A stretch of DNA of 41,069 nucleotides from a virus (lineage: Duplodnaviria; Heunggongvirae; Uroviricota; Caudoviricetes): IMG/VR virus record IMGVR_UViG_2541047748_000013; one strand, 5' to 3'. The notes beneath the pieces were generated by a model. That model ran no database searches. It was not told the origin of the DNA and was given only the letters and a program-made list of their open reading frames with translations. Numbering within the stretch: the stretch's first letter is position 1; every line of letters starts with the position of its first letter. Of the stretch, positions 9,193 through 25,702 are shown piece by piece. The position numbers and the translations under genes were made by a program.

Positions 9193-9193
9193 T

Positions 9194-9693: not shown

Positions 9694-12168
9694 TTATTGC
9701 GGAGTGACATCCTGAGGTCGCCACCAGTATGTCTGATTAAACTCTTTCTTCGAACGTTGCTCCATTTTACGCAAATAGCCTGGTGAAAAATACTCCTGCA
9801 TCTGGTTCAAGATCATATGATCGAGAGCCGCCTTTAAGTACCAGAGATTCGCACCTGGCATCAAACCTTTCCCCAGCTTCACCAGATCACCACCAGTCTG
9901 CTCACTCTTCCCTTCCACAGCATTTAACGGTATGCCCTGAGCAATCTTCACTACGTCATCAACCAGACCAGCTACCGGGCCAAGCATCGACGCCAGCGCG
10001 CCGCTTCCGTACCTAGTGTGATCTGACAATAAAAAGTCACCGTAAAGGCCAAGGCCACCACCTTTCAGTAGAGCACCAAGCCAGAATTTTGCGGCACCTT
10101 CTCCTGTCATCTCTCGAGGATTACGACCAGACGCAAGGTCGTTAAGTTGCTGCGACAAAGCGCCAAGAATGGTCGTACTGGCAATAAACGTCGCAATATA
10201 TGCCGCACGCCCACCAGCAGACGGCATACCCATAGCGCGTGACCAGTGACGCATAACAACCGAGATAGGGAACGATTTAAACAGGAAAACACTTCTCGTT
10301 AATTCACCTTTCCATGTTCCACGCTGAATACCAGAACCGGTTATCAGTTGCTCACGTGCTCCCGGTGTAATAACAGCCATATCAACTTCTTCAGTTACGG
10401 CACCGAGCAGTTTACGCATTGCCTCAAATTTCACTCGTTCAGGCTCACCAAGATGTTTAACTGCTGAATCAGGGATACGCATAATGCTTTCCGGTGTCAG
10501 CATCGTATTATTACCGTTCCCCCAGTCCTCCTGTTGCGCCAGCTTCCATACGCTCCAGTCTGTGTCAGTAATCCCTTTGCTTTTCAGGATACGAAAATCA
10601 GAGTCATCGAGGCTACGAAGGTCTGGTGTCCGTGACACTACTTCTCCCAGGCTTCCCATCATGGTTACGCCATAGGCGCGCTTGTGCGCATCTGACCATG
10701 CTGTAAGCCCACTGGCACGCATTACGGCCGTTGCCGCCCAACGAGACACTGACGGCCCCATATTATCCATCGCCCAGCGGTTAACGCTGCCAAGTAGAGA
10801 TTCCATCGCCAGACCAGCGCGGCGCGCCCGCGCAAGTTCTGTACGGTTCGTTGGGTCCATAGCTTCAAGCTGGTTGCGGAATAACTGGTTCATTGGAAGG
10901 TTGGTAACCTTCGCAGACAGATACATGGTTCCAAGATCAGAGAACGATGACAGCAACGCGGATCCGAGTCTGCTGGCAACCAGCCAGTTGCGGATATTGT
11001 CAGACCATCGCGCGATGTGCGGATTCGCTACAGGCTGTGTCTTTCCAGAAATAAAGTTGTACAGATTCTCTGTGTTGTTCGCCAGCCGCTCGACTTTACC
11101 GGTTTTACTCGGGTTAGCTGTTGCCGTTTCTGCCTTAACCTGATCAAGAAGGGAGCGGAAAACATGATCGGGGTTTGGGCCATATGTTTCCACCAGTGCA
11201 ATATCTTTACTGATACCTTCCAGGTGACCGACCATGATTTCCCATAGAGAGCGATCGCCATAAAGTTGCTGATATTGCAGATAGGAATCTGCATCTTTGA
11301 AATGTATCTGTCGTGATGCATTACCACGGTTAGCACGTGCGCCGGAAATTCGCATTCCGGTATCAGTAAGCTTATTCAGCCCACCAGTAGCGATCGTGTT
11401 ATAAGCCTCTCCAAGAAATGCAGACAACTCGGCATCGTTCATCAGTTGTCCATCGGCTCGGGTATAATATTTGCGATCCAGCTTACCTATAACATCGCTA
11501 ACCCATTTATCTTTTGATACCGCCCCAACCTTTTCCATAGAATGATGTTGAGGGATCCCCCAGTTTTCGAGATAGCCAATGTCCCCACCAGCATCATTAA
11601 ACCGGCGGCGGAGTAGATCTGTCACTTCTCTCCACGCCTTAGCACCTTTTCTTGCTTTAGCATTGCCAGTATTTTGCCCTCGCATTTCATATACCAGGTC
11701 ACGCACGCCCGCTTCATCTTCAAACAGGCCAAAAAAGCGAGGATCAACTGCTTCGAATGCCTCCTGCAATTGACTCAATGCATAATCACGAGTGGCTTTT
11801 GTTCTGGACTCAACAGAGAGGAAATTCGATTTACCGTCTGCATTAAAAGCAATAGTACGGTTAAGAGCGCCAAGTTTCCCATCAGCCCCTTGATAGCTAT
11901 TGATAAATTTATCCAATCTCTGACGTGCGGCTATAGTAAGAGCCACACGACGTTTCTTTAATGCCGCTTCTCGCTGTAATTCTTCAGATGCCAATTGTGC
12001 TGCACGATACAGCCGCTCTGACTCGGAAAGTTGTCGCCACGACATAGGGTCATCACGAGCAATGGAGCGCATATTGCGATAAATGCGGTCTTCAATGTTC
12101 TGTATTTCTCGCGCCGTTAACGTGCGCTGCGCCGCCTGCTGGACCGCTTGTATACATTCCTGTCTCAT
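9694..12168 (-). CDS. Internal virion / DNA-ejection protein (large)
   Basis: 824 aa, last of three large proteins following internal-virion-protein B-like gene, as in T7 gp15/gp16 block. Confidence 0.55.
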   Translation of the reverse strand: MRQECIQAVQQAAQRTLTAREIQNIEDRIYRNMRSIARDDPMSWRQLSESERLYRAAQLASEELQREAALKKRRVALTIAARQRLDKFINSYQGADGKLGALNRTIAFNADGKSNFLSVESRTKATRDYALSQLQEAFEAVDPRFFGLFEDEAGVRDLVYEMRGQNTGNAKARKGAKAWREVTDLLRRRFNDAGGDIGYLENWGIPQHHSMEKVGAVSKDKWVSDVIGKLDRKYYTRADGQLMNDAELSAFLGEAYNTIATGGLNKLTDTGMRISGARANRGNASRQIHFKDADSYLQYQQLYGDRSLWEIMVGHLEGISKDIALVETYGPNPDHVFRSLLDQVKAETATANPSKTGKVERLANNTENLYNFISGKTQPVANPHIARWSDNIRNWLVASRLGSALLSSFSDLGTMYLSAKVTNLPMNQLFRNQLEAMDPTNRTELARARRAGLAMESLLGSVNRWAMDNMGPSVSRWAATAVMRASGLTAWSDAHKRAYGVTMMGSLGEVVSRTPDLRSLDDSDFRILKSKGITDTDWSVWKLAQQEDWGNGNNTMLTPESIMRIPDSAVKHLGEPERVKFEAMRKLLGAVTEEVDMAVITPGAREQLITGSGIQRGTWKGELTRSVFLFKSFPISVVMRHWSRAMGMPSAGGRAAYIATFIASTTILGALSQQLNDLASGRNPREMTGEGAAKFWLGALLKGGGLGLYGDFLLSDHTRYGSGALASMLGPVAGLVDDVVKIAQGIPLNAVEGKSEQTGGDLVKLGKGLMPGANLWYLKAALDHMILNQMQEYFSPGYLRKMEQRSKKEFNQTYWWRPQDVTPQ

Positions 12169-12173
12169 TTAAT

Positions 12174-13976
12174 TTAACCTCTCAAGAAACACGCCACAGC
12201 GACATCAAACAGGCTGGAATCCTGTATTGCCTGCTCACTTTCCCTGTTCGTTTCATCCAGTACTTCACGCGCACTGCGCGATTGTGGATTACCATCATCA
12301 TCCAGCACGGTGATTATCATGTCAGGTGATTCAAGCAGCGAGTCTTCAGCTATGCGCAGATCAATATCTCCTGCCTGATCTGACATCATTTTTTGTTCTG
12401 TCTGTTGCAATATCTTACCGGGCTCAAAAGGAGCTACTTCGTCTGGCGTCCTGACCTCTGCTGTTTTATAGAATGAAACAGCCTGAGCATTAAGTTCACT
12501 TTCTGCCTGCTGTCGCCGTGCCAGTTCTGCTCGAGCTTCAAAAAACTGACCGCCAGGCTCATGCGGTGCCAACGCGTTACGGGAAAATTCCAAGCGTTCT
12601 TGTGCCTGCCGGATTCGTTGGTCAATATCGCGAAGTCTGGCCTGTTTATCTGATCGAGCACGAGATAAAGCCTTACCGCTACCGGTTGGCTCTTCTGCAA
12701 GAATTTGTGCGCGCTGTTCAGTGAGATTTTCAATAATTCGTTGGCTATTAGCGATTTCAGACTGGTAAACCTGTCTATCGCCACGCGGCAAAAGCTGCGC
12801 GGCCTGTTCTTCAAGCAACCGATTTTCTATAGCGCGCGCCGTTACTCCATCATCTACAGATGACAGAGCCTCATTAACTGCCTGAGACAGCAGACTCTTG
12901 CGCCCAGGAATTTCACTGAAAGATGCAGACTCAACAATGCTGGCAACGTCTACAGGTCTCCCCTGGCTAACATCAGACATGGCTTTTCGCAGAGCCTGAA
13001 TGTGCGAATTACGCGAAAGCACGTTGATCGGAACGCCGGGAGCAATATCAATTTCAGCATGATGAGCGGCATTCGCCGCCAGTGCAGCATCGATATCAAC
13101 TGGTGCAAAATTTGGTGCGCTTGTAGACTCGCCGCGAGAGTTCATAAATCTGCCGACACCACCAAACGCCACCCCAAGAACAGCATCAATAGCAATTGCC
13201 TGTCGATCCAACACATCATACTGGTTAGCCATTTCGCTATAGCCACCATCACGAAGCGTTTTTGCAGTAAGCCCACGCTGTGCCATACCGAACGCAATAT
13301 TTGTACCTGCGGCATAGGCAATATCTGGCGTTGCACGTACTGCTGTTGCTGCGGCGCGTCGCACTGAACTTTCACCCGTCCGCGCAAGCTGGGCCGCCAC
13401 ACCTTCCGCCAGCGCACCACCAGCACGTAACCCGAGGCTCATAGGGATCAGTGTTCCGGCACCAGCAGTAATACCCTGCACTAATCCCGCTTCCTGCGCC
13501 GTCCTGAAATCAACACCCTGAGCGGACAGGCGCTCAAATTCAGAGAATCCCTGAAGAGAGGTAACTGCGGCTGCGCCACCAATCGGCCCTGCTAATGCTG
13601 AACCGACAACAGCCTGTCCGCCCATATCGAACAACCCATAAAGAACCTGCCCGGCGGTTCCGGTTGTCGCGGCATCAGGCGTCAACCGCTTAACCTGCTG
13701 CTCTGCTAGTTTTCTCTGCTCGGCAATGTATGAAACTGAAGTATCATTGAACGAGGTGTTTTCGTTAACAAACTGAGCAATCGGGGATACGATTTTATCC
13801 ATTCCTGCCCATAGCAACTGGTCTGGCTTTGCCACCAGCCCGGAGTACAAACCAGACAATGCCGCTCCTACAGCATTGTCGAAAAAACCAACATCGCTGT
13901 TAAATCCCGCTGGATTTGATGCTGCTTCGTCAAGCTGCTGATTCTGGTTTACTGGATTAAGGCCAAAGTAACTCAT
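12174..13976 (-). CDS. Internal virion / ejection protein, Gly/Ala-rich
   Basis: 600 aa, G/A-rich N-terminal half, position in ejection block. Confidence 0.55.
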   Translation of the reverse strand: MSYFGLNPVNQNQQLDEAASNPAGFNSDVGFFDNAVGAALSGLYSGLVAKPDQLLWAGMDKIVSPIAQFVNENTSFNDTSVSYIAEQRKLAEQQVKRLTPDAATTGTAGQVLYGLFDMGGQAVVGSALAGPIGGAAAVTSLQGFSEFERLSAQGVDFRTAQEAGLVQGITAGAGTLIPMSLGLRAGGALAEGVAAQLARTGESSVRRAAATAVRATPDIAYAAGTNIAFGMAQRGLTAKTLRDGGYSEMANQYDVLDRQAIAIDAVLGVAFGGVGRFMNSRGESTSAPNFAPVDIDAALAANAAHHAEIDIAPGVPINVLSRNSHIQALRKAMSDVSQGRPVDVASIVESASFSEIPGRKSLLSQAVNEALSSVDDGVTARAIENRLLEEQAAQLLPRGDRQVYQSEIANSQRIIENLTEQRAQILAEEPTGSGKALSRARSDKQARLRDIDQRIRQAQERLEFSRNALAPHEPGGQFFEARAELARRQQAESELNAQAVSFYKTAEVRTPDEVAPFEPGKILQQTEQKMMSDQAGDIDLRIAEDSLLESPDMIITVLDDDGNPQSRSAREVLDETNRESEQAIQDSSLFDVAVACFLRG

Positions 13977-16486
13977 TGCGGAATATCTCCGGAGAATCTC
14001 TGACGCTTCTGTGTCAGATCAAGAACAACAGGAGAACCATCATCTTTCAGCAGATAACCAGTACCAAGTTTCACCAGATACTGACTATCGCCGTAACTTT
14101 GCAAACCATACTGACCAGGCGGTGTTTTTATCCCGGTGCCGACAACTTGTTCATTCCAAGCCTGATTAACCTGCTTATCGAATTGCTCTGCAGACATTCC
14201 CCACGGCAAAAGGACATTCCCCATTCCGTTATAGTCATGCACGCCACCTGTAGCTACGTTAACAGCCTGTTTCCAGATATCAGTGTCAATTTCACCTGAT
14301 ATCACGCCTTTTTTCGCCATCACACCAGCGTAATAGTCCTTTGCGATCTCGTATGCCATTGATGCCCCCTGAGCATCACCAGCAAATGCATCCTTCACCA
14401 TGTCAGAAAACTCAAGGCGAAGATCAGCATCTTTAGGCATCGGAATACCTTTCGCATCATCAGTACCTTTACGAGCCGCCGCGCCAGCAAGAATTGTCTG
14501 CGCAGCGGTTTCAGGAGACACGGAAACATCCGGATTAAACCAGTTTTTTTCTGCCAAAATACCACCAGGCTTGTCCATCAGTATCCCGGCAACGGCAGCA
14601 GATGGAGCGTTGGCACTGATCTGCTGTAGTGCTGACATATACACCTGCCCACCACCAGTGCTCTGCCTGATGGTATCGAGATATGCTGCCTGTTGGGAAA
14701 CTGGAGCATCACGAAAGAAAACACCGATCTGATTGGCCTCGTCTTTGGAAAAGAACGTCAGTGGAGTGCCATATGACTTAGCAAGGTCACTGACCTGAGC
14801 GGCACGCAAGGCAACGCTCTGTCCAAAGTTATCCTTATTGCTCATGTCGATAGGCTTTGTCTGTCCGGAGGCAAGAGAGAACTGCACAGGATCCGACTGC
14901 CGCTGCTTTATCACCTGATTTGCAGCCGAAACAACGTTGTCATAAAGAGCTGCGCGTGCCGCATACCCCTCCCCTGTTTCACCAGTATCCGGGCGTAATT
15001 GCTCAACATATGCTGTAATGCTGCTTGTCGGCATGTTGCGGAAAGAGCCTATATACTGTCCGGCGATCTGCGTATTCTTAAACTCGGTATATCGCAGGTT
15101 TCCTTCTCTGACTCCATAAGCTGCAATAAAATCATCCTCACCAGGTGGGTTAGGAAATTCAACGCCACGCATATACGCAGCCGTCGCATCGCGAACCCGG
15201 CTGTCGAGCATCGTTTTATATTCAGCCTGCTGTTGTCTGGCTAGTGCATCAGTCTGTCGCAACACGCTGGCCTGATCTGATTCACTTAAAGCATCGAACC
15301 AGGCTACACCGGTATAACGTTTATTTTTTGTCGGTAGCTGAGAAAGCCCCAGCGCAGCACTAACACCTGCAGTTAACTGCTGATCACTGTATGGCTGGCT
15401 ACCGTTTTCATGATGGATAATGGCTGCACAAAGCGCCTTCAGGGTATCAGGATTTGATGCATCGAGAGGCTCATCAGCAGAAACGCCAAGTTGTTCGCAC
15501 ACTGCTTTGATATACGACATAGTGTCATTTTTATCAGTAGGCGGTGCCCAGCGATTAATTATCTCGCTGACGGTATCAATACCCTGCCGCTGATACGACA
15601 TCAGGTTCCGCCCTAATGCACGAATACCGTGTTCAGGGGTTTCGAATTTGGCAAAGCGACCATCATCACCAGTCTGCCCAACCCACGGATTAGTTTTGCT
15701 GTATTCAAGATTGCCGGGGTTATTGTTGCGTATACCGCGGGTACGATCGGAAGAGCCACTATCTGCTACAGCACGGCGAGATCCAGCAGCAGTATCGCTT
15801 AACTCGCCGTTTTGCTGTCTTACCTGAAGATAGTTTGCTCCAATAGCATTTTGAGCAGTTGCTTTTGCTGTTGCTTCTTTAAACTCGATTTTCTTGGCCT
15901 GGATTTGCTCGTCACTCCAGCCATGTGCAATGCCGTAATCCTCAATTTGCTGGAAAGTTTGCTTATTAGCCAATACGTATGCGGCGTTGTCGCCATACAA
16001 TGCTGCGGCATTTTTACCATTGTTCAGCAGCGTAGCCTGAAACTGGCCTTCTTCGTAGGCATTTATTTGCCCTATCTCGTACCTCCCGGCCTGCGTAGTG
16101 AACTGAATGCGCTGCTGCTGCGCCTGCTGCATGAAAGCATTACGAGCCTGTTCATCCGGCAGCGACATAGCCAGTTGTTCGACCTGAGCATCAAACTGCT
16201 GCGTATACTCATGGCCTTTTCCAATAGCATTTTTCCCTTTCAGGTTAAGCAATCCTGTTTCAGGATTATTCAGCAGATCGCTGCTTATCTGACTGAGGTT
16301 AAGAGATGCCTCCTGAGCCAGAGCGATATTGGCACGCTGTTTTTCCTGACCAAAAACATCAATTGCCTCTGTCCCTGCCCGAACAAAAGCATTACCAATA
16401 CCTGGCTGAGAAAACGTCTGCAAGCCTGCTGACTGAACTCCACGACTTTGCACCTGGCGTCCGGATGTAGTAGGAACAACAGGCAT
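13973..16486 (-). CDS. Internal virion protein with putative peptidoglycan-hydrolase domain
   Basis: 837 aa; contains RNNNPGN motif region seen in virion-associated lysozyme domains. Confidence 0.55.
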   Translation of the reverse strand: MPVVPTTSGRQVQSRGVQSAGLQTFSQPGIGNAFVRAGTEAIDVFGQEKQRANIALAQEASLNLSQISSDLLNNPETGLLNLKGKNAIGKGHEYTQQFDAQVEQLAMSLPDEQARNAFMQQAQQQRIQFTTQAGRYEIGQINAYEEGQFQATLLNNGKNAAALYGDNAAYVLANKQTFQQIEDYGIAHGWSDEQIQAKKIEFKEATAKATAQNAIGANYLQVRQQNGELSDTAAGSRRAVADSGSSDRTRGIRNNNPGNLEYSKTNPWVGQTGDDGRFAKFETPEHGIRALGRNLMSYQRQGIDTVSEIINRWAPPTDKNDTMSYIKAVCEQLGVSADEPLDASNPDTLKALCAAIIHHENGSQPYSDQQLTAGVSAALGLSQLPTKNKRYTGVAWFDALSESDQASVLRQTDALARQQQAEYKTMLDSRVRDATAAYMRGVEFPNPPGEDDFIAAYGVREGNLRYTEFKNTQIAGQYIGSFRNMPTSSITAYVEQLRPDTGETGEGYAARAALYDNVVSAANQVIKQRQSDPVQFSLASGQTKPIDMSNKDNFGQSVALRAAQVSDLAKSYGTPLTFFSKDEANQIGVFFRDAPVSQQAAYLDTIRQSTGGGQVYMSALQQISANAPSAAVAGILMDKPGGILAEKNWFNPDVSVSPETAAQTILAGAAARKGTDDAKGIPMPKDADLRLEFSDMVKDAFAGDAQGASMAYEIAKDYYAGVMAKKGVISGEIDTDIWKQAVNVATGGVHDYNGMGNVLLPWGMSAEQFDKQVNQAWNEQVVGTGIKTPPGQYGLQSYGDSQYLVKLGTGYLLKDDGSPVVLDLTQKRQRFSGDIPQ

Positions 16487-17061
16487 CAGTAACCTCCTAT
16501 TTTGAATCGGGAGTCAGAATTCATAAAACCTGAGTTAGATAACATTGGCGTCCCACCACTAGATGTACTTCCTTTAGAGAACGGACTCCACGTCCCACCA
16601 AACATCTGGTACGCACCGTATGCCTTCAGAGGCGCAGTGAGCAATGTTGTTGCTGCTCCCACATTCCCCTGTTTACGGGCTGAACTGGCTTCTGCTTTAT
16701 AGTTGGCAGCCTGAACCTGATAACCGTAAGCCTCGCGTTGCGCGTTATTCACCGTCGTCAGCGAATCAAGAGCGCCAAACTGGGCAGTGTCGCCAAATAT
16801 ATCCAGCGCGTTACCTGTAGATAAATCAGCGCCGGTAGCCCCCATTGTCGCCGCCTGTGTACCAAGCCGCTGTCGGGTCTCTCTGCGTCGTTGCTCAGCT
16901 TCAGCGTTACCTCTGTTTATTGCATCATTTGCCTGAGCTGTGGCTATATCTGCGTTCGCTTCTGCAACCTTCGAGGCATACTTTCCCTGTTGGTACTGGG
17001 TGTATGCCTGAATGCCACTCATGGCGAGCATTGCGCCACCAGCAATAACCGGATCGCACAT
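16486..17061 (-). CDS. Internal virion protein B-like (T7 gp14-like)
   Basis: 191 aa, Ala/Gln-rich, N-terminus MC..A....SGIQA; size and position match. Confidence 0.5.
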   Translation of the reverse strand: MCDPVIAGGAMLAMSGIQAYTQYQQGKYASKVAEANADIATAQANDAINRGNAEAEQRRRETRQRLGTQAATMGATGADLSTGNALDIFGDTAQFGALDSLTTVNNAQREAYGYQVQAANYKAEASSARKQGNVGAATTLLTAPLKAYGAYQMFGGTWSPFSKGSTSSGGTPMLSNSGFMNSDSRFKIGGY

Positions 17062-17525
17062 TATTTTCTCTCCATGTGAAATCTGTGGAAATTAAGACCA
17101 AGAGCACCATAAGGCGCGGCTTCTTCAAGCCTGAATCCAAGCCAGTGCAGCCATGCTTTGGCAACATGGTTTCGCTCGTCGACGTAGTTTTCCAGGCGCG
17201 GATAAACTGCCAGCATCTGCTGCAATACAGGGCGGCAGTGGCGAAGAAATGTCTTCTGATATTTTTCAATACGGCTGGTTCCGACCAGCCAGGGCGTACC
17301 ATTGCCACCGATCATTGACGCCGGAGATACGCCAAACATGGTTACCAGTTCTCCGTTCGCAAATCCTGACCAGGCCATAGTCGCAGTACGCAGACCAACA
17401 CGCAGTGCATCTTCGGTAGTCATCAGTGATACCGCATACAATTCGTCAATATCAGCCTGACGAACATCCGGCAAAATCATCTGAAGATGCTCTTCGGTAG
17501 CGGGAATAATTTGAACGTAGATCAT
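17061..17525 (-). CDS. Internal virion protein A-like (T7 gp13-like)
   Basis: 154 aa, directly downstream of tail tubular B-like gene. Confidence 0.45.
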   Translation of the reverse strand: MIYVQIIPATEEHLQMILPDVRQADIDELYAVSLMTTEDALRVGLRTATMAWSGFANGELVTMFGVSPASMIGGNGTPWLVGTSRIEKYQKTFLRHCRPVLQQMLAVYPRLENYVDERNHVAKAWLHWLGFRLEEAAPYGALGLNFHRFHMERK

Positions 17526-19996
17526 CAGAATCCCCCAACAGTAAGGCGAGGAATAACGGCAAGAACAGACAGCGGCAACGGGTCAAGCTGACGGATTTTT
17601 ACACGTCCGTTTTTGCCCCAGTTACTGTCCAGTTTCACTTCTACTTTTCCGGTAGCGTCATCAACAGGATCATCGTAGAACTCGAATTCACGCTGTGGAT
17701 ATTCGTACCATTTACCGCCGGGCGTAGTCGCCCAGATGCCGCGACTGGCATTCACAACCAGAGTAACAGACGGGATCACCTGTTTTTTGTCCAGCAGCGT
17801 TTCCTGTCCGTTAATGTTGATATCCAGTGTTTCGAATTCAGCAGTTATTGGCAGGCCGATGTGCACTACAGCCCCCGGAGATTCCAGCGTGACGGCACCT
17901 CCGGAAACCACTTTCTGTGGTTCCACGTTCGCATCAGAGAGGATGTTTACGGTCTGGCCTTCAAGATGAGACAAGCCGCCAAATGTCCGGCGCGCCATCT
18001 GCCAGTTCGTGGTGGCCACATTCCTGAGGGATGGCGGGACGTTCCTGTTAGCACGAACCACTACAGCGGTATTGCTGGTTACAGAAATAATGTCGCAACG
18101 TAATTCTTTTGACACCTCATCGCCAGTATCAGGATCAGTTCCGGTATAAGGGAACTGTAGTTGCGCGCCGACATCACTACTGGTGAAGTACGCACCACCA
18201 GAAACACTGATTGTATATTCCGCGCGGTAATCCCATTCGCCAGAACCACCAGTGATGATCATCGTTCTGTCAGACGTATTTCTTCCATCATAGCTAAGGC
18301 CAGAATCAACAAAGAAAGCATCTTCATCGCTGGTAAATAAACGGCTGGACAGTCGCTCGATGTATCTCACTGTTTGCCCGTTAACGGTTCGGTTAATGAC
18401 GAAATACACCGCATCTTCATTGCCTTCGCTGATACTGCATGTGCTTTCATATTTTCCGGTACTGGACTGTGGTGCCCATGCAAAAACCTGTTGATCACGC
18501 AAATAGGTCATCACCAGTAATTTACCGTCATCACGAATGCAGAAGGCGCTGGAGTAAGGGACTATCGAGAAGCACCAGTCAACAATGCTGTGCTTCTGAA
18601 AAAGATGATTGGCAAGGATAGTAAGGTCGTTCCCCTGATAGCCGTCAACATCGAATGAGTAGGCCAGATCACGGACAACACTGCCTTTCTCCTGGACGAA
18701 CAGAGCAATATTCGCCACGGCAATTGGTGGGACATTGCTCGAGCCATTTGATCCCTGAGAGCTGAATGCAAATGATGATGGGGTAAGCACTTTGTTCTGG
18801 TCGCCAGTGATGACGTACTCACCTCCGGAAGTCAGCGCCACCAGCGAACCAACATCAATCAGGTGACGGATCTCATTAACCTGACGCCCGGCATAGGTGT
18901 AGATAATTCTGTCGTCATCCTGCGTAGGATTGCTTTTGCCAAAATCCTTATAATCCCCGGTACGGCTGGCCCAGATAGTCTGAGGAAACGCAGTCGATGC
19001 GGCGAAGTAAAGACGTTGTTGATAATAAACAACAGTGCCAGGATAACCATTAACACTGTTCCAGGCATATTTAGCCCATTTATAGCTGGCATTATCCTCG
19101 CCCACGACCTGCGAAGGGATATAGGAAATCACCTCGGCAGTTGCAGTAGTTCCATTTGCAGCAGTGATACGGGCAATGCCAAAACCACTGTGCAGATATT
19201 CCCACTCAATGCCAGTATCATCATCACCGGATCCGCCCCAGCCATCCCATGATGTGCCTTCTGTATGCGAAGGGCGCAAAGTACCTGTTTTGCCTGCTGT
19301 AACGGCGCGATAGTAGTTACTGTCTGCACGGCGAATATCGCCAATCGACGTACTCTTACTGGTTTCCCATACCGGCACAGAATCCACTGCAGGCTGTTCC
19401 AGATAGAACAATTTGCCTACCTGCTCCGCGCCAAAAATAGAGGCGCTTGCCGTTAGCGTAATTGTCCCGGTGCTGGCGCTGGCATAAACCGTCACTGACT
19501 CGTCAATATTGATATCTTCAAATGGCCCGTTCTTCGTTACCACATCAACCAGTTGCCAGTTGTCATGCGCATAGCGGCGCAACTCTTTCGGCGGGTATGC
19601 CGGATGAACCAGCGTAAGCACGTCTGCGCTTTGCGTGAATTTAATTCGGAACAGATCGGCTTCAGTATATGGCGTGGAAATTTCATAAATAACATTGCTG
19701 CTGTTCAGCACCAACGCACCATCTTTGATAACGCGCATGTACTGGTGTCCGAACTCCAGAGCATAAGTCTGAACCGTCGAGAACTGGAACGGGATCAGGC
19801 GGCATTTCCGATTTGGGTATTTGGCGGCACCGACAAAACGCGTACCAGGTCGATTCTCAACTCCGCCATACTGCCGCACGATAAAGTTATCGCACTTGCG
19901 CAATGCCACCTGGTACTTCGCCATGTCAATACGACCGTACAACGACGGTCCAATCTCACCACCGGCAAAGCTGGGCTGGATCCAACTGATAGCCAT
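17525..19996 (-). CDS. Tail tubular protein B-like (nozzle)
   Basis: 823 aa, follows a 201-aa tail tubular A-like gene; size and order as T7 gp11/gp12. Confidence 0.55.
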   Translation of the reverse strand: MAISWIQPSFAGGEIGPSLYGRIDMAKYQVALRKCDNFIVRQYGGVENRPGTRFVGAAKYPNRKCRLIPFQFSTVQTYALEFGHQYMRVIKDGALVLNSSNVIYEISTPYTEADLFRIKFTQSADVLTLVHPAYPPKELRRYAHDNWQLVDVVTKNGPFEDINIDESVTVYASASTGTITLTASASIFGAEQVGKLFYLEQPAVDSVPVWETSKSTSIGDIRRADSNYYRAVTAGKTGTLRPSHTEGTSWDGWGGSGDDDTGIEWEYLHSGFGIARITAANGTTATAEVISYIPSQVVGEDNASYKWAKYAWNSVNGYPGTVVYYQQRLYFAASTAFPQTIWASRTGDYKDFGKSNPTQDDDRIIYTYAGRQVNEIRHLIDVGSLVALTSGGEYVITGDQNKVLTPSSFAFSSQGSNGSSNVPPIAVANIALFVQEKGSVVRDLAYSFDVDGYQGNDLTILANHLFQKHSIVDWCFSIVPYSSAFCIRDDGKLLVMTYLRDQQVFAWAPQSSTGKYESTCSISEGNEDAVYFVINRTVNGQTVRYIERLSSRLFTSDEDAFFVDSGLSYDGRNTSDRTMIITGGSGEWDYRAEYTISVSGGAYFTSSDVGAQLQFPYTGTDPDTGDEVSKELRCDIISVTSNTAVVVRANRNVPPSLRNVATTNWQMARRTFGGLSHLEGQTVNILSDANVEPQKVVSGGAVTLESPGAVVHIGLPITAEFETLDININGQETLLDKKQVIPSVTLVVNASRGIWATTPGGKWYEYPQREFEFYDDPVDDATGKVEVKLDSNWGKNGRVKIRQLDPLPLSVLAVIPRLTVGGF

Positions 19997-20601
19997 CAGG
20001 ACAACCTCGCAATGGTAAACTCGTCAACCGGTGGCAGTGGTTCCTGTGATTCATTCTGGCTATGCGAGCCAGCACTAAGAATCACGCGATTGTACATATT
20101 GAGGGCAAACGTACCGAGGTCTGCATTCCCAGTCAGCGCCATGTTAATAGCTGCCGCAAGACGCCAGGCCAACGCCTCCATAAAAATGGCATCAAACATG
20201 TTCACATCTGAAACGCGAGAGACATACTTGAGCCATGCCTGCGGCTGGTCTGTGTAGATCAACTTTCCTGTTCCGTTGGTGTCTGCACCAACTTCGTACT
20301 GAACGCGCATTGCTGCTGTTGGATTGCGTACACCAGGAAGCATAATTTCAGTAATGCGCAGACAATCGGACGGGTACTGATACGCATATTCCCAGTCAGG
20401 CGGTGGATTGCTCGTATCTGCAAGCGCCACGCGTTTGGTAGCAAAGTTCCAGTCAAAATCAGAAAGCACAGCATCACGGCAGGCCTCAAAGTGCAGCGAA
20501 CATTCCCCCGCTTCCTTGCTGGCTTCCGTCAGGCTGTTAATGCTGCGGCTATTGCCAATATTGGACAGCGCACGATTGCAGATCTCTACTACAGAGGCCA
20601 T
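19996..20601 (-). CDS. Tail tubular protein A-like (adaptor)
   Basis: 201 aa; position between head-completion genes and tubular B-like. Confidence 0.5.
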   Translation of the reverse strand: MASVVEICNRALSNIGNSRSINSLTEASKEAGECSLHFEACRDAVLSDFDWNFATKRVALADTSNPPPDWEYAYQYPSDCLRITEIMLPGVRNPTAAMRVQYEVGADTNGTGKLIYTDQPQAWLKYVSRVSDVNMFDAIFMEALAWRLAAAINMALTGNADLGTFALNMYNRVILSAGSHSQNESQEPLPPVDEFTIARLS

Positions 20602-20930
20602 TACTCACCCCCATTGCCGTACAGGGTTTCAGCCGCTGATTTTTCTACATCCCCGGAAACAGGAGCGATCGCCATATCAGTGATCTGCAGATCGGCGCTG
20701 CGATTAACACCATCGTCAGTTTCTCTGGCAGACAGGCCTCGAATAACAGCTTTTGCAGTTATCATCACTTCTGTTCCGACGCCCTGAGGTTGCGCCTTCA
20801 GCTTATTCAATGTGTCGTTATTAAGAGTGATGCACAGCCCCCACGGGTATTCATCGCGAGTTCTGGTTTCTCCGCTCTCATCCTGGTAGCTGTCAGTGCC
20901 GGTTTTGAGGTTTACGAGTTCCATATACAC
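20601..20930 (-). CDS. Virion-module hypothetical protein
   Basis: 109 aa, contiguous with structural operon. Confidence 0.45.
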   Translation of the reverse strand: MYMELVNLKTGTDSYQDESGETRTRDEYPWGLCITLNNDTLNKLKAQPQGVGTEVMITAKAVIRGLSARETDDGVNRSADLQITDMAIAPVSGDVEKSAAETLYGNGGE

Positions 20931-20974: not shown

Positions 20975-21319
20975 TTACACGCCTAGTTCTTTACGCTTAT
21001 CTGCGATCTTCTCGCGGAGCGTTTCGGCTTTAGCGTTATGGTGTGGCTTCTCGTTAAAGAGCAATTCGTACTCTTCACGGAGCTTATCCAGTTCACCATC
21101 ATCTGACACATCGTTGATGATTTTGGTGCTGGTTGCTGCCATTGACACCTTTCCTGCAACTTTTGCTTTTGCCTGTCTGGCTGCATCGTTAACAGGTTCC
21201 AGTGCGCTACCAGGCTCACCTTCGTATTCGATTTCTGCCCCCTCCGGCCACAGTGTGTTATGGATATGAGAGAGGCGCAGAACGCGGTATCTTGGTTTCT
21301 CACCTGACATCGATATCAC
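20975..21319 (-). CDS. Virion-module hypothetical protein
   Basis: 114 aa, contiguous with structural operon. Confidence 0.45.
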   Translation of the reverse strand: MISMSGEKPRYRVLRLSHIHNTLWPEGAEIEYEGEPGSALEPVNDAARQAKAKVAGKVSMAATSTKIINDVSDDGELDKLREEYELLFNEKPHHNAKAETLREKIADKRKELGV

Positions 21320-21320
21320 C

Positions 21321-21809: not shown

Positions 21810-22802
21810 TTACACCACGCGGGCTTCTGTTTCCAGAAGCGCATCAGTTTCACGGATTGGTACACCACGGAATGAAGTCCACCACTCGCCTTCTGTCTCT
21901 TTTACGCTGATAGCCAGAGATGTTTTCTCCAGAGACTGCAGATCAAGAGCCTGGCCTACAGTGCGGTTCATGTAGAACACCGGGCGGCCCATGCCACGGT
22001 TTGGAATGCGATGCAGTGCTTTAACCATCAACTTCGCAATATTTGCGGCAGAGGATGGTTCTGAAAGATTGCTGACATCGATGTTTGCAATGCGAACAAC
22101 ATAACGCCAGTCACGCAGAGCAAGTCCGTTATCCCATTTGTAATGGGTGCGATAGCCTTCGTACTTGCCGCCATTAGCATCTTCCAGTGTCACCTGGCCT
22201 TTATCTTCCATCTGGATGCCAGCCTTCTGCCCTTTCGGGAAGATGCCATGCACGGTGTTTTCGCCCCACACCACTAACCAGATTGAGGTGTTATCTGTAC
22301 CCGTGCCACCAGCATCAATGATGTTCTGAGCATTACCCGCAGACAGGCTGGAATAGCGGGAGGACAGTCCCATAAACTGCTGAGGATTAACGCTGGAATC
22401 ACCATAAAACAGCGTCTGCGCCATCTGCTGATTCATCGCTTCAATAAATGCGCGGTCTTCAGAAAGGCGGAATTCGGCGGTATTGCCGTTCAGATCAGCC
22501 AGTGACTTATCGACTTCCGCATAGGTTTCCAGCATGCCAACGGAATCGGTTACCTGCACTGTGGTTGATTTGCTTGGCTGTACGCCATAGTTCAGCAAAC
22601 GCCAGGTAGCTGAAGGTAAACCAGAACGAATGGTGGTTCGGTGTCCGGTAGGAAGGTTCCCTTCGACAAAAGGCATATCCTGAAGGATCGGGTTAGTTTG
22701 ACCGAGAAGCTCGATAATCTTATCGACTTTCCCGTTTGGATCGACGCGCTTACCCCAGTCAGCCAGCGTTAGCGCAGTTAAGCCTTTAACAGCCATTGTC
22801 AT
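21810..22802 (-). CDS. Major capsid protein
   Basis: 330 aa, follows scaffold gene in the canonical terminase-portal-scaffold-capsid order. Confidence 0.7.
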   Translation of the reverse strand: MTMAVKGLTALTLADWGKRVDPNGKVDKIIELLGQTNPILQDMPFVEGNLPTGHRTTIRSGLPSATWRLLNYGVQPSKSTTVQVTDSVGMLETYAEVDKSLADLNGNTAEFRLSEDRAFIEAMNQQMAQTLFYGDSSVNPQQFMGLSSRYSSLSAGNAQNIIDAGGTGTDNTSIWLVVWGENTVHGIFPKGQKAGIQMEDKGQVTLEDANGGKYEGYRTHYKWDNGLALRDWRYVVRIANIDVSNLSEPSSAANIAKLMVKALHRIPNRGMGRPVFYMNRTVGQALDLQSLEKTSLAISVKETEGEWWTSFRGVPIRETDALLETEARVV

Positions 22803-22810
22803 TTCCTCTC

Positions 22811-23512
22811 TTATTTGCCATAGAGCACTTCGGCCGCACTACGCTGGCCTTCATTACTACCGGTGACCATGCCATCTTCAGACATCGCCTTTCCGATTTT
22901 CACGAACGTTTTGACCAGATCAGGGTGATTACCCAGCCCGGTGGTGTTCAGATATTCTTTGAGTTCAGGTGTCCCGAACTGGTCAAGCGCACGCTGTGCG
23001 GCGCTAAGGTTAGAAATCAACTTGTCGCCACCGATTTCTTTGTCAGCTTTTACATCAGCAGCCCACTGCTCGGTTGTTTTCTGCCAGGCTTCTGCCTGGC
23101 GCTGCTGCACACCTGCCAGAATCTTCGGATAAGCATCAACCAGCTTTTGCGCTTGCTCGTTGGTCAGGTTTAGTTCTCGCGCCACCGGCTCGAATTCCTT
23201 CAACGCTTCTGTATCCAGCTCTACGCCTTCGGCAGCCTGAAACTCGTACTTTTCAGGCGCACCCTCTGGTTTATCGCCGTCCTTTTTTTCATCCTGCTTA
23301 TCGTTTTCAGGCTTTTTGTCATCAGCAGGTTTATCGCCATCAGCAACAGGTTGTGGCTTATCACCTTCCTGTTGTGATGGATCACCAACTGGAGCAGGGT
23401 TATCACCTGCAGGCGCTGACGGTTCTGACGCAGCCGGAGCTGCTCCACCATCGACTGGTTGCTCATTGCAAAGACGGCGATACAGCAAACGCTCAAATAA
23501 ATTCATGATCAC
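22811..23512 (-). CDS. Scaffolding protein
   Basis: 233 aa, acidic, Pro/Asp/Lys-rich low-complexity N-terminal half, between portal and capsid. Confidence 0.65.
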   Translation of the reverse strand: MIMNLFERLLYRRLCNEQPVDGGAAPAASEPSAPAGDNPAPVGDPSQQEGDKPQPVADGDKPADDKKPENDKQDEKKDGDKPEGAPEKYEFQAAEGVELDTEALKEFEPVARELNLTNEQAQKLVDAYPKILAGVQQRQAEAWQKTTEQWAADVKADKEIGGDKLISNLSAAQRALDQFGTPELKEYLNTTGLGNHPDLVKTFVKIGKAMSEDGMVTGSNEGQRSAAEVLYGK

Positions 23513-23805
23513 TCCTGTTCACTGGCCTCTTTGGCCATCTTCAAATACTGTTCAGGGCAATGCGCCATAACGCGCTGAAACAGTTCCAGCGCCAGATTGC
23601 GTTGCCCCTCATTAAATGCCATTGCCATAGCGTCCATCGGTGAGATAGCGGAAAACACACGGCCTTTCTCCAGCACCGACCAGACAACGCGACGCCCCTG
23701 TTCACTGCTCATGACAAAGCGAATGTCATCAATTTCACGCTGTGCCATGTCACGTTGCTTACGGGCGTTTTCTTCTTTCAGTTGATCATCTTCGTAATCT
23801 GTCAT
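23509..23805 (-). CDS. Hypothetical head-assembly protein
   Basis: 98 aa, 4-nt overlaps with portal and scaffold genes. Confidence 0.5.
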   Translation of the reverse strand: MTDYEDDQLKEENARKQRDMAQREIDDIRFVMSSEQGRRVVWSVLEKGRVFSAISPMDAMAMAFNEGQRNLALELFQRVMAHCPEQYLKMAKEASEQE

Positions 23806-25481
23806 TGTGATTGCCCACCCTGACCACTAACTGCATTCGCCATAGCTGACAAAACACTCGGATCCGAAGTTTTAGCTTCGCTTAGCGTCTTGGCACCCTG
23901 TGCCGCCGCCATCCCCATCGCCATCATTTGTTGCTGCTGTTGTTGCTGTGCCCGTTGCTGGCGAGCCTGCTCAACCTGTTCCTGCGGAACAATGACGGTT
24001 GGAGACACTCCGGACATATCAGCGAATGCATCGATCGCCTGATCAACGTTGAGTTTGTCGAGAGCTTCTGGTTTCGCTTGCGCAAGTTGACCAATGAAGT
24101 TAACCGTGGACGCCAGACTGGACAGGCCGATAGACTTCTGCGCCTGAGCCATGACGGAAATGTATTCGACCTTCAGGGGCATACCTTCCATCACGTCTGG
24201 CGGTGGCGGCAGCATGTTTTTACGCACCATCATCGAGAAAGAGCGGTCAATGAGAGGATTAAGACATTCGTCGTTCAGACGCTCCAGAACCGGCCCCAAC
24301 ATCAGAAGTTTTTCTTCTTTCATTTCGATCACCGCTTCAACAGGCATCGAGCGGGTATTGATGTTCTGCAACATCATGAACAGATCGACAAAGTAGGCGC
24401 TGTTAATGATTTGACGAGTGTCCTGAATGTCTGCCACCAAATCTGCTGTACTGGGGTTAACCAGATAAGCAGGCCTGAAACCATCCTGACCAGTAATCTG
24501 ATCGATATACGTGATGTCGCCAGGAAGAAGGGAGGCACGCTGATTCTTGAGGGAAGTCGGAGCAACCATCGGCGGATTGGTGGCTTTATCAATCAACTGC
24601 GACTTGCGCTTCTGAAGAAGCTGCAATGCCTTAACAGATCCAAGCGCCAGCATACCCGGGCATGATGATCCATAAACATCTTCGCCGTTAACTTCCCAGC
24701 GCGGAGCCATAATTGGAAACTCATCGAATCCGGACTCACGCAACAACTTGTCGTTATCGCCACCAACCTCGTAATAAACCGATTTGAATGGCTTGTTCTT
24801 GCTATCCAGCTTCGATGTATCGCGGTCAATGTTCGGGTAAACCGAATGCATCACTTCAATCCACTTCTCGTAGGTGCCGCTTTCCCACATGCTTTTTACG
24901 GATTCGCTGACGTTATTTAGTCCGAACTCCTGAACAAGCTGACGAACAGTCATAGAGAACTTGCGAAAACAGGTGTCCACACTGCCACGAGGTGAGTTAG
25001 CCAGGTAGTAACTGCCTATCGGGAATGGCATTGTGCGAATGATGTCCTCGTCATCCTCCAGCACTGCCATTGCACCAGTGCTGTATGTGCCGAGGCTTCC
25101 GTATAACTGCGGCAGCGACTGATAGAGATTCGACTTATTGAACATATCGTTCATGCGGTTCTGCACCGCCTCAAGCCACAACTTAACAGGGCCATAATCC
25201 ATCATTTCAGGATCTGGCGTAGCCAGGCGAAACCACGGACGCGCGGGGCTTGTGATGCCTGACATCATGCCGCTGGCGAGAGTGCGCGCCGCCATAGTCC
25301 CGGTCGAATCAATAATGCGTGTATTGCGTCGATCGTTACGGTTAACCTCAGAAGTCAGAAAGCGGGAACCACGCGGGTTGATGTAATCACTCAACTCGCG
25401 CCAGTGCGGCTCGAACGACTGACGCTCGCTTTCAAGTTGTGCGAACTGTTTGTTCAATCGCTCTTTAGTTGTTTCCGCCAT
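23802..25481 (-). CDS. Portal (head-to-tail connector) protein
   Basis: 559 aa, first large gene after terminase; Gln/Ala/Met-rich C-terminus reminiscent of T7 gp8; GGAG RBS. Confidence 0.75.
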   Translation of the reverse strand: MAETTKERLNKQFAQLESERQSFEPHWRELSDYINPRGSRFLTSEVNRNDRRNTRIIDSTGTMAARTLASGMMSGITSPARPWFRLATPDPEMMDYGPVKLWLEAVQNRMNDMFNKSNLYQSLPQLYGSLGTYSTGAMAVLEDDEDIIRTMPFPIGSYYLANSPRGSVDTCFRKFSMTVRQLVQEFGLNNVSESVKSMWESGTYEKWIEVMHSVYPNIDRDTSKLDSKNKPFKSVYYEVGGDNDKLLRESGFDEFPIMAPRWEVNGEDVYGSSCPGMLALGSVKALQLLQKRKSQLIDKATNPPMVAPTSLKNQRASLLPGDITYIDQITGQDGFRPAYLVNPSTADLVADIQDTRQIINSAYFVDLFMMLQNINTRSMPVEAVIEMKEEKLLMLGPVLERLNDECLNPLIDRSFSMMVRKNMLPPPPDVMEGMPLKVEYISVMAQAQKSIGLSSLASTVNFIGQLAQAKPEALDKLNVDQAIDAFADMSGVSPTVIVPQEQVEQARQQRAQQQQQQQMMAMGMAAAQGAKTLSEAKTSDPSVLSAMANAVSGQGGQSQ

Positions 25482-25495
25482 TTCAATGACTCCGG

Positions 25496-25702
25496 TTACT
25501 GACCAAGCAGCGTTTTACCGCTGGTATTAGCGGTTGATGTGTCGCCCTGAGAACCGGTAAGCAGCGTAGAACTACGACCAGCAGCAACGCGACGGCGACG
25601 TGTTTCTTCGTCGCGGGCATCAACAACGGCGGCATCCTGCTCCTGTGGTGCTGCCTGAACTTCTGGTGTTGCAGGCACTGATGGTGAGCTACCCATGCAC
25701 AT
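25496..25702 (-). CDS. Small hydrophilic hypothetical protein
   Basis: 68 aa, GGAG RBS 9 nt upstream, stop 12 nt before portal start; preferred over overlapping 25483-25722 frame. Confidence 0.45.
   Translation of the reverse strand: MCMGSSPSVPATPEVQAAPQEQDAAVVDARDEETRRRRVAAGRSSTLLTGSQGDTSTANTSGKTLLGQ

Follow-up and report, generated by a model that had tools for sequence, protein, structure and literature searches.

The late operon of an epsilon15/phiV10-type prophage and the T7 kinship of its short tail

Between positions 9694 and 25702 of the 41,069-nucleotide stretch of viral DNA analysed here (the window), structural genes follow one another much as the virion genes of phage T7 do. Is this a T7 module "embedded" in a lambdoid temperate genome, as a preliminary description proposed, or does the resemblance have an older origin? 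The parallel itself was confirmed: all the listed open reading frames (ORFs) of the region were found on the minus strand, intact, full length and packed with overlapping starts and stops (Table 1), and their order and sizes match T7, in which gp8, 9, 10, 11, 12, 13, 14, 15 and 16 measure 536, 307, 345, 196, 794, 138, 196, 747 and 1318 aa. Chance does not account for the T7-like order: at seven of the positions it is supported by protein family, profile or fold matches.

Table 1. Features of the window, in order of position
Feature	Position	Strand	Evidence
Host yfgH and yfgI	1-1071		adjoin att core
att core ATTGAGTGGGAATGATT, left prophage boundary	1163-1179	-	exact match, 0 expected by chance
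Tailspike, 1039 aa	3394-6513	-	Pfam endosialidase domains
Strong terminator hairpin closing late operon	9176-9193		terminator scan
Two small membrane-protein ORFs	9202-9498 and 9511-9684	-	hydrophobic translations
Putative large internal protein 3, 824 aa, epsilon15 gp17 family	9694-12168	-	phrog_684 "virion structural protein"
Putative large internal protein 2, 600 aa, epsilon15 gp16 homologue	12174-13976	-	phrog_1145
Large internal protein 1, 837 aa	13973-16486	-	phrog_7182 "tail injection transglycosylase"
Small internal/ejection protein B, 191 aa	16486-17061	-	PF24072 T7_gp14 E 4.4e-8
Small internal virion protein A, 154 aa, T7 gp13 position	17061-17525	-	phrog_308 E 1e-62
Tail nozzle, 823 aa, T7 gp12/"tubular protein B" type	17525-19996	-	
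Tail adaptor, 201 aa, T7 gp11/"tubular protein A" fold	19996-20601	-	
Capsid protein, 109 aa, epsilon15 gp10 family	20601-20930	-	PF21628 Gp10-like E 1e-51
114-aa protein, epsilon15 gp9 homologue	20975-21319	-	phrog_590; phiV10 p12 99%
Bbp16-family protein, 145 aa	21321-21758	-	PF21190 Bbp16 E 7e-47
Major capsid protein, 330 aa, epsilon15 gp7 type	21810-22802	-	PF20911 GP7 E 2e-149
Scaffold candidate, 233 aa	22811-23512	-	position between portal and capsid genes
98-aa Bbp19-like protein	23509-23805	-	PF25181 E 3e-17
Portal, 559 aa	23802-25481	-	PF12236 Head-tail_con E 7e-188
68-aa protein, epsilon15 gp3 homologue	25496-25702	-	phrog_831; phiV10 p06 99%
Opposite-strand insert between terL and portal block	26130-26772	+	
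tRNA-Arg(TCT)	26130-26206	+	ARAGORN
Hairpins at the insert	26250-26285 and 26793-26812		
Sf6 gp66/N4 gp49-like gene	26401-26772	+	PF13876 E 2e-35
Terminase large subunit (terL), 491 aa	26863-28338	-	phrog_2 E 6e-53
Terminase small subunit (terS), 224 aa	28335-29009	-	PF03592 Terminase_2 E 1.4e-29; phiV10 p01 99% aa

Very probably, the region represents the late operon, devoted to morphogenesis, of a Uetakevirus prophage of the epsilon15/phiV10 type integrated in its host. Over 99% of its length, it shows 97-98% DNA identity to four podophages, HEMP4, vB_EcoP_ZX5, phiv142-3 and phiV10, of which ZX5 and phiV10 are classified in Uetakevirus; the synteny with known temperate podoviruses extends to epsilon15, the type of the genus, whose gp1-gp20 order is the same. 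The att core (Table 1), a sequence previously published for phiV10, epsilon15 and ZX5, adjoins host yfgI, which indicates that the window is a prophage, and it sits in an E. coli K1-type chromosome. The phage group is one already described, the published K1 phage ZX5 being nearly identical. Many E. coli prophages are cryptic, and this chromosomal copy is known from sequence alone, so that one might suspect a defective remnant with nonfunctional structural genes. We consider this very unlikely: besides the intact ORFs, (i) the structural proteins, the swapped tailspike excepted, show 93-100% amino acid identity to their counterparts in phiV10, an isolated phage, (ii) the 824-aa protein and its counterpart in the plaque-forming ZX5 are 99.2% identical, (iii) the window is 98% identical to ZX5 DNA where the two can be aligned, and its tailspike gene 99.9%, and (iv) the prophage has its att core, an integrase, a repressor and a lysis cassette. 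The early region, described before as lambdoid, is so in a loose sense, with a lambda-type P protein, a CI-type repressor, RecT and an integrase.

The limits of the operon are wider than first drawn. It runs past 9694 through two small membrane-protein ORFs to the terminator hairpin, and the proposal that module boundaries coincide with palindrome/terminator cassettes holds only loosely. Upstream, terS and terL (26863-29009) are part of the same morphogenesis block, TerL being 99% identical to its phiV10 counterpart and 95% to epsilon15 gp2. The 68-aa and 98-aa genes that flank the portal gene, and three additional genes located between those of capsid and adaptor, are without T7 counterparts; for the 68-aa protein, no link to T7 gp6.7 or gp7.3 was found. 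The gp17-like fibre thought to belong to the module turned out to lie outside it, plus-strand genes (2.7 kb) separating the tailspike gene from the ejection genes.

In the head, the portal is related to that of T7: T7 gp8 is also in PF12236 (E 3e-113) and matches the portal reciprocally through phrog_332/449. The major capsid protein (99.7% identical in phiV10, 43% in epsilon15 gp7) belongs to PF20911, T7 gp10 to another family, PF21703, and no similarity was found between TerL and T7 gp19. The record of epsilon15 gp8, the Bbp16-type protein, carries an HHpred note to 3j4u_H, "BBP16, cementing protein", and epsilon15 gp10 carries a capsid-protein annotation and is modelled in PDB 3j40; a decoration or cement role may be suggested for the 109-aa capsid protein. 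By its position only, the 233-aa protein is probably the scaffolding protein; it has no Pfam or PDB match. Public records call it a "protease", a label that phrog_458 carries; its one NCBIfam match is at chance level, far under the cut-off and to a non-protease family. In the epsilon15 record, the "protease" label of gp6 rests on similarity to an LT2 "putative endoprotease".

The tail is where the relationship to T7 is clearest. The adaptor matches the connector of Carin-1 (PDB 8ck1_E, E 1.5e-26, 32% identity) and the nozzle its "Tail Nozzle" (8ck1_A, E 6e-217, 45% identity). AF2 models of both proteins (pLDDT 78 and 89, respectively) were searched by Foldseek. For the adaptor, whose sequence profile gave no significant match to T7 gp11, the model retrieved Carin-1 (1e-15), LME-1 (1e-8), T7 gp11 (7ey7_M, 3e-6) and KP32 tubular protein A (4e-6). 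For the nozzle, it retrieved Carin-1 (TM 0.91) and T7 gp12 over its full length (E 9e-24, TM 0.53), and profile alignment with hhalign placed nozzle residues 321-439 on gp12 350-466 (E 5e-5). A tail machine of the P22 (Lederbergvirus-like) type, with a gp4 adaptor, gp10 hub and gp26 needle, has to be weighed here: the order terS-terL-portal-scaffold-coat-adaptor-hub-small and large ejection proteins-antirepressor region-tailspike is also found in P22, the tailspike shares its endosialidase part, at 99.5% identity, with the P22-like phage CUS-3, and the gp14 and gp16 trees of Swanson 2022 cluster epsilon15 with P22. Indeed, the genome layout resembles P22 as much as T7. Yet the nozzle (823 aa) is far from the 472 aa of gp10 and matches it less well than gp12, both in hhalign (E 0.067) and in Foldseek (E 2e-9, TM 0.30); gp4 is missing from the top 50 adaptor fold matches, no gene of gp26 size follows the nozzle, and the portal is of the T7 type. 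A P22-type machine is thus very unlikely, and the adaptor and nozzle searches support a tail of the T7 adaptor-nozzle type, neither siphovirus- nor myovirus-like, as first proposed.

After the nozzle come five putative internal proteins. T7 gp13 is also in phrog_308 (E 1e-42), and the 191-aa protein scores 33.7 bits against PF24072, for a cut-off of 27. The 837-aa protein, 56% identical to epsilon15 gp15, bears a muralytic domain at about residues 249-403 and matches Gp29 (PDB 9vvp_L, 1295 aa) over residues 3-151 (E 9e-39) and the endolysin 7q47 (E 2e-17). The 600-aa protein, 32% identical to epsilon15 gp16, has no Pfam match and no T7 similarity was found for it; its position suggests a large internal protein. 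Neither it nor the 837-aa protein showed detectable similarity to gp15. The 824-aa protein gave a weak profile-profile match to the T7 gp16 family (hhalign E 3.5e-4, probability 37%, 317 collinear columns) and may be a candidate homologue of the gp16 C-terminal part; Hardies et al. 2016 (PMC4819975) assigned epsilon15 gp17, of the same family, as IVP-D. Three large ejection proteins are indeed encoded, as the preliminary description had it, but T7 has two.

The tailspike is composite, joining an epsilon15 gp20/Carin-1-type N-terminal anchor (8ck1 fibre anchor, E 1e-35) to a K1 endosialidase (endoNF 1v0e, E 0) and a C-terminal chaperone domain (3gw6). The CUS-3 identity concerns siaK1 and spans window positions 3423-5815. 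The N-terminus of the tailspike shares phrog_1640/2710/27277/15695 with T7 gp17.

Could the structural genes have moved recently from an Autographiviridae (T7-family) phage into a lambdoid backbone? The collinear order, the matching protein sizes and the portal, gp13-like and gp14-like families held in common with T7 would fit such a chimera. However, BLASTP, tBLASTN and phmmer matched none of the T7 structural proteins, the capsid, scaffold and terminase are of families other than those of T7, no ORF of the window outside the structural genes is large enough for a phage RNA polymerase, and the same combined architecture is kept across the genus and in distant relatives, namely BcepC6B, VP5 and Pelagibacter and Liberibacter phages. 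Recent transfer is refuted, and we give the chimera next to no credence. The link with T7 is instead an ancient common ancestry of the podovirus tail and ejection apparatus. Of a "T7-like virion module", the portal family, the adaptor and nozzle folds and the gp13 and gp14 families stand, and the capsid, cement proteins and terminase do not; because capsid and terminase come from lineages other than that of T7, "T7-like" is limited to the tail and ejection part. Nor are such phages under-characterised: epsilon15 serves as a model phage for cryo-EM, phiV10 and ZX5 have been published, and Hardies 2016 had already equated epsilon15 gp11, 12, 13, 14 and 17 with tubular A and B and IVP-A, B and D. 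The T7 kinship of the short tail was thus in the literature, and the observation, though right in outline, is an ordinary one.

A working model of the virion may be suggested. The minus-strand operon would supply terminase, a dodecameric portal and scaffold, together with a capsid protein of HK97 fold, its cement proteins and a short tail hub, in which a gp11-type adaptor ring would bear a gp12-type nozzle; trimeric endosialidase tailspikes would dock to this hub via the conserved N-terminal anchor. The five proteins encoded after the nozzle would make up a core inside the head, lying over the portal; upon infection they would be ejected and build a channel through the cell envelope, with peptidoglycan being cut by the muralytic domain of the 837-aa protein. 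The gene content and its near-identity to viable phages are direct observations, and family or fold identifies the portal, capsid, cement proteins, adaptor, nozzle, gp13-like and gp14-like proteins, muralytic domain and endosialidase; work on epsilon15, T7 and Carin-1 is the basis for presuming the stoichiometries, the packaging of the core, the formation of the channel and what the 233-, 600- and 824-aa proteins do. The ejection proteins and core stack of epsilon15 are discussed in Swanson 2022.

Among known systems, T7 shares the features set out above and differs, beyond its capsid, scaffold and terminase families and the three extra capsid-associated genes found here, in having its terminase genes downstream (upstream here), a Pfam SLT domain (PF01464) in gp16 (here the muralytic domain is not of that family and lies in the first large protein), and a lifestyle that is not temperate, with a phage RNA polymerase. 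P22 and CUS-3, likewise temperate podoviruses, resemble the prophage in their lambdoid early region, their structural order and the antirepressor region before the tailspike, but differ in the gp4/gp10/gp26 hub and in portal and coat families. Epsilon15 is closer: amino acid identity is high in the nozzle (88%), adaptor (84%) and portal (81%) and lower in the cement proteins (36-42%) and gp17 (28%), the catalytic part of its tailspike is unrelated and its locus is without the tRNA-Arg gene. The closest solved structures for nozzle, adaptor and fibre anchor are those of Carin-1 (Cobetia marina phage, PDB 8CK1) and LME-1 (Legionella phage, PDB 9EFK), which differ in hosts and receptor-binding domains, LME-1 being much the more remote (17% identity); in the LME-1 paper, Carin-1 is termed "another T7-like virus" and the LME-1 portal-tail complex is said to be much like that of T7. 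In ZX5, phiV10, phiv142-3 and HEMP4, about 30% of the non-structural half is unaligned, corresponding to nin/ea-type accessory genes and the ~6.5-9.5 kb region, and phiV10 has its own, different tailspike and an O-acetyltransferase. ZX5 (MW722083), a podovirus with a 60-nm head and a 15-nm tail by electron microscopy, is the nearest: 97.8% identical over 99% of 9694-25702, with the same attP core, early genes and integration on the guaA side, guaA being the site reported in the ZX5 paper.

The block at 9694-25702 on the minus strand, which runs from the portal gene through the genes of three large internal proteins (9694-16486), does not represent a novel chimera but the ordinary morphogenesis operon of an already described genus of temperate podophages. 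Among 50,697 phage records, megablast covered 99% of the block, and its DNA was 98.1% identical to that of HEMP4, 97.8% to vB_EcoP_ZX5 (hereafter ZX5), 97.3% to phiv142-3 and 97.2% to phiV10, followed by Enterobacter phage Tyrion (81%) and Salmonella phage epsilon15 (75% across about half of the block). The rest of the genome was 68-80% covered, at 96-98% identity, by ZX5, phiv142-3, phiV10 and HEMP4. By genome-wide nucleotide similarity the window falls within Uetakevirus, the genus given in the ZX5, phiV10 and epsilon15 records. Its genes correspond one to one with phiV10 p01-p25 and epsilon15 gp1-gp20, the Uetakevirus order terS-terL-portal...gp17-tailspike is kept, and the epsilon15-type capsid and cement proteins are present (matches to PF20911, PF21628 and PF21190). 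At the amino-acid level, all structural proteins share 93-100% identity with those of phiV10. The corresponding identity to epsilon15 is 95% for terL, 88% for the nozzle (823 aa), 84% for the adaptor (201 aa), 81% for the portal, 43% for the capsid (330 aa), 36-42% for the cement proteins, 32% for the second large internal protein (600 aa) and 28% for the third (824 aa). Relative to epsilon15, and within the genus, the structural module is internally mosaic. Salmonella phages SPN1S and SPN9TCW have a counterpart of the 824-aa protein with 94% identity.

The window is an integrated prophage. Bases 1-1071, which hold two host genes, were found in 5422 of the 5426 complete E. coli genomes, and similarity to phage records starts exactly at the attP core, whose sequence is the one published in the ZX5 paper. 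The integrase, the core ATTGAGTGGGAATGATT and the guaA-adjacent integration are all those of Uetakevirus. ZX5 itself was isolated, imaged by electron microscopy (60-nm head, 15-nm tail) and shown to lysogenise its K1 host at the 3' end of guaA, and the same endosialidase tailspike has been published for it. Of the 5426 genomes, 459 carry 80% or more of bases 1-3400 (junction and lysis cassette); identity is 100% in isolates from humans, among them SF-468 and the cerebrospinal-fluid isolate EC69, and 99.9% in the duck isolate ExPEC XM.

Minus-strand ORFs follow one another without a break between 29009 and 9176, and the GC skew is negative over the whole of this stretch. Within the block, these ORFs encode proteins of 68, 559 (portal), 98, 233, 330, 145, 114, 109, 201, 823, 154, 191, 837, 600 and 824 aa, and stop and start codons overlap between most of them. 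The gene sizes and order given in the preliminary description are therefore real, except that the gp17-like fibre (1039 aa) had been placed inside the block and its gene lies outside. The same description had the edges of the module coincide with palindrome/terminator cassettes; this holds only loosely: hairpins and a terminator lie nearby, but there is no hairpin at 9694 itself. The plus-strand tRNA-Arg(TCT) gene between terL and the portal block is also found in phiV10 (20407-20483) and ZX5 and is absent from epsilon15. In phiV10 it overlaps the opposite-strand CDS PhiV10p04 (20413-20664), which makes this CDS doubtful.

Coordinates of the features in and around the morphogenesis operon
Feature	Position	Strand	Remarks
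yfgH	1-516		E. coli host gene
yfgI	532-1071		E. coli host gene, adjoining the att core
attP core	1163-1179		published core sequence
Lysis cassette	1290-3087		two holin-family proteins, GH19 endolysin, DUF2514 protein
Tailspike	3394-6513	-	1039 aa
Plus-strand insert	6586-8915	+	between ejection genes and tailspike
Bro-N antirepressor-type gene	7267-7992	+	in the insert
DUF2335 membrane protein	8367-8915	+	in the insert
Hairpin	8914-8932		bidirectional, downstream side
Terminator	9176-9193		strong, end of operon
Small ORF	9202-9498	-	98 aa, membrane protein, strongly hydrophobic, after last ejection gene; matches phrog_3075
Small ORF	9511-9684	-	57 aa, membrane protein, strongly hydrophobic, after last ejection gene
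Hairpin	9527-9548		weak, downstream side
Third large internal protein	9694-12168	-	824 aa
Nozzle	17525-19996	-	823 aa
Scaffold candidate	22811-23512	-	233 aa
tRNA-Arg(TCT)	26130-26206		in opposite-strand insert next to terL
ORF equivalent to PhiV10p04	26136-26378
Hairpins	26250-26285, 26289-26328, 26793-26812		upstream side
Sf6 gp66/N4 gp49-like gene	26401-26772	+	in opposite-strand insert next to terL
CI-type HTH_3 repressor	34109-34693		divergent from a small 76-aa ORF in the Cro position
Tyrosine integrase	39819-41069		at the end of the window

The genome around the module had been described as lambdoid, which is fair for gene content. Besides the repressor, it encodes a lambda P-type replication protein (PF06992, E 5e-56), a DnaT-domain initiator, a YqaJ exonuclease and RecT for recombination, an MT-A70 methylase and the integrase, and NinX/Ea-like genes are annotated in ZX5; in its repressors, P protein, recombination genes and integrase, the early region is lambdoid. 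The gene order is the genus's own and not that of lambda: the lysis cassette lies downstream of the tailspike, whereas it lies upstream of the terminase in lambda.

Whether the virion module embedded in this genome is T7-like depends on the depth of the test. BLASTP, phmmer and tBLASTN comparisons of all 19 window proteins with T7 gp8-gp19 gave nothing significant, and family, profile and fold tests were therefore used instead. These deeper tests show a T7-like tail and a core that is T7-like in part, so that the earlier reading stands for these components, although not at the level of pairwise similarity. Synteny alone is unable to separate T7 from P22, which has the same overall gene order, down to an antirepressor region that lies between its ejection genes and its tailspike.

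The portal belongs to the T7 gp8 family: it matches PF12236 (E 7e-188), as does T7 gp8 (E 3e-113), and the PHROG matches of the two proteins are reciprocal. The adaptor matched the Carin-1 'connector' chain 8ck1_E (E 1.5e-26); its sequence profile was negative against both T7 gp11 (hhalign E 0.56) and P22 gp4 (E 0.35), and it did not match PF17212 in Pfam. Its AlphaFold2 model (pLDDT 78.5), searched by Foldseek, matched Carin-1 (1e-15), LME-1 (1e-8), cyanophage P-SCSP1u, PhiM1, KP32 tubular protein A and T7 gp11 (7ey7_M, E 3.4e-6; also 7box and 6r21). Over the T7 gp11 chains, E ranged from 3e-6 to 2e-5 and TM from 0.42 to 0.46, with a probability of 1.00, and P22 gp4 was absent from the top 50 matches of the model. 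By its predicted structure the protein is a gp11-fold adaptor (tubular protein A), a kinship that the fold search alone succeeded in detecting.

The nozzle is a gp12-type protein (tubular protein B). It matched the Carin-1 'Tail Nozzle' 8ck1_A (E 6e-217), and hhalign with a 28-sequence profile aligned its residues 321-439 to T7 gp12 residues 350-466 (E 5e-5), inside the central gp12 domain (354-556) of Hardies et al.; the same profile scored E 0.067 against P22 gp10. Among PDB sequences, the matches of the profile were limited to Carin-1, LME-1 and a 'nozzle gp13' chain and did not include T7 gp12, and PF25675 was not directly matched in Pfam. In Foldseek, the AlphaFold2 model (pLDDT 89, pTM 0.85) had a TM of 0.91 to Carin-1, behind which the T7-type nozzles came as a block (E 1e-21 to 1e-24, TM about 0.5). 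The T7 gp12 chains 7ey9_s, 9jyz_P, 6r21_a and 7boy_s were among the matches, gp12 aligning over its full length (E 9e-24 to 4e-21, TM 0.53-0.55), and P22 gp10 stood far below the T7-type nozzles (E 2e-9, TMq 0.30). By these profile and fold results, the hub belongs with T7 rather than with P22. No P22-type gp10 hub with a gp26 needle was found, nor does any gene of needle size follow the nozzle gene; a P22-type tail (gp4/gp10/gp26) is rejected on the hub scores and on this missing gene. The nozzle profile also matched a domain (residues 490-558) of 7eea_A, the tailspike receptor-binding protein of a short-tailed cyanophage (E 1.5e-8), at positions 250-318, which are numbered along the profile and lie upstream of nozzle residue 321. 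This match suggests that the nozzle carries an inserted surface domain.

The head and packaging genes differ from those of T7. The capsid belongs to the epsilon15 gp7 family (PF20911) and not to the T7 family PF21703, T7 has no counterpart of the Bbp16-like, gp10-like and 114-aa genes lying between capsid and adaptor, and the terS and terL upstream of the block are of other families than those of T7. The 233-aa protein does not contain the T7 gp9 domain (PF05396); it had no Pfam or PDB match, and its NCBIfam match was at chance level, far under the cut-off, to an unrelated family. The N-terminal third of its translation is acidic and proline-rich. Public records and PHROG 458 call the gene 'protease', 'endoprotease' or 'peptidase'. 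Both roles are putative, a scaffolding protein being the more likely of the two. The 68-aa protein, considered as a T7 gp6.7/gp7.3 analogue, has no PHROG in common with these proteins and no BLASTP similarity to them. Membership in the Autographiviridae fails as well: apart from the portal, the nozzle, the three large internal proteins and the tailspike, no ORF reaches 500 aa, leaving no RNA polymerase ORF, the capsid and candidate scaffold are of other families, and the phage is temperate, with an integrase and a repressor. A recent T7-to-lambdoid chimera is rejected.

The tailspike is a three-part mosaic. Its first 209 or so residues form an anchor of the epsilon15 gp20/Carin-1 type, a K1 endosialidase (endoNF 1v0e, E 0) spans residues 205-876, and an intramolecular chaperone domain follows at the C-terminus. 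The N-terminus shares phrog_1640, 2710, 27277 and 15695 with T7 gp17, finds a match in the fibre anchor of Carin-1 (8ck1), and was termed a T7-like tail fibre domain by the ZX5 authors; BLASTP found only a 22-residue motif (E 0.007), and PF03906 was unmatched at E ≤ 0.01. The gene is 99.9% identical to that of ZX5 over its whole length, and from 3423 to 5815 it matches siaK1 of the P22-like prophage CUS-3 at 99.5% identity, indicating that the receptor-binding module was exchanged between two podophage lineages. The prophage is common in extraintestinal pathogenic E. coli and encodes an endosialidase against the K1 capsule, which bears on K1 phage-host ecology. The plus-strand insert next to the tailspike mirrors the immI (mnt-arc-ant) region, found at the same position in P22; it differs between this prophage and phiV10.

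The internal proteins are T7-like in part. The 154-aa protein and T7 gp13 both belong to phrog_308, and the 191-aa protein belongs to the T7 gp14 family (PF24072, E 4.4e-8, 33.7 bits vs a curated cut-off of 27). No relative below 87% identity came out of the homologue search for the 824-aa protein, and diverse relatives were drawn instead from phage records (13 sequences from Pseudomonas, Acinetobacter, Burkholderia, Klebsiella, Salmonella, Vibrio, Pelagibacter and Liberibacter phages). Against a profile built from the C-terminal two-thirds of T7 gp16, the resulting profile gave a collinear alignment of 317 columns (hhalign E 3.5e-4, probability 37%), and it matched the single T7 gp16 sequence at E 0.009, with a GxL...QFKSF motif; neither the single sequence nor the profile matched PDB sequences. 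These alignments are suggestive of a relationship to T7 gp16, in line with Hardies et al. (2016; PMC4819975), who reported a gp16 match with larger sequence sets. No gp15 homologue was recognised, the 837-aa (first large) and 600-aa proteins having neither similarity to T7 gp15 nor a family in common with it; Hardies et al. found no gp15 match either and assigned epsilon15 gp15/16 by position only. The 600-aa protein matched no solved structure and no T7 protein.

The muralytic domain is also placed differently. T7 has two large internal proteins and carries its lytic transglycosylase at the N-terminus of the last and largest; the window encodes three, and it is the first of them, the 837-aa protein, that carries the muralytic domain (residues 249-403). 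This domain matched the N-terminus of the 9vvp Gp29 chain (L, 1295 aa; E 9e-39) and also the endolysin 7q47, and unlike that of T7 gp16 it is not a Pfam SLT domain. It is tempting to speculate that the 837-, 600- and 824-aa proteins build an internal core and ejection channel departing from the solved T7 gp14/gp15/gp16 paradigm, although we consider this unlikely; if true, a phage present in roughly 8% of complete E. coli genomes would possess a distinct variant of the ejectosome.

Little here is new: that epsilon15-type phages have T7-like tail and ejection proteins is already known. The results will mainly serve annotation, as in public records the adaptor, nozzle and large internal proteins still go under 'hypothetical' or under vague names such as 'tail protein' or 'head protein'. 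For gp11, T7 tubular protein A is already cited in the epsilon15 RefSeq record, and Swanson et al. (2022) compared the ejection proteins of epsilon15 with their T7 and P22 counterparts. Hardies et al. (2016; PMC4819975) united T7, phiRIO-1, epsilon15, P22, N4 and F116 in a 'transient tail homology group', in which epsilon15 gp12 is tubular tail B, gp13 and gp14 are IVP-A and IVP-B, gp17 is IVP-D and gp15/16 are proposed as IVP-C candidates, with a separate history for capsid and terminase. [quoted passage not shown]
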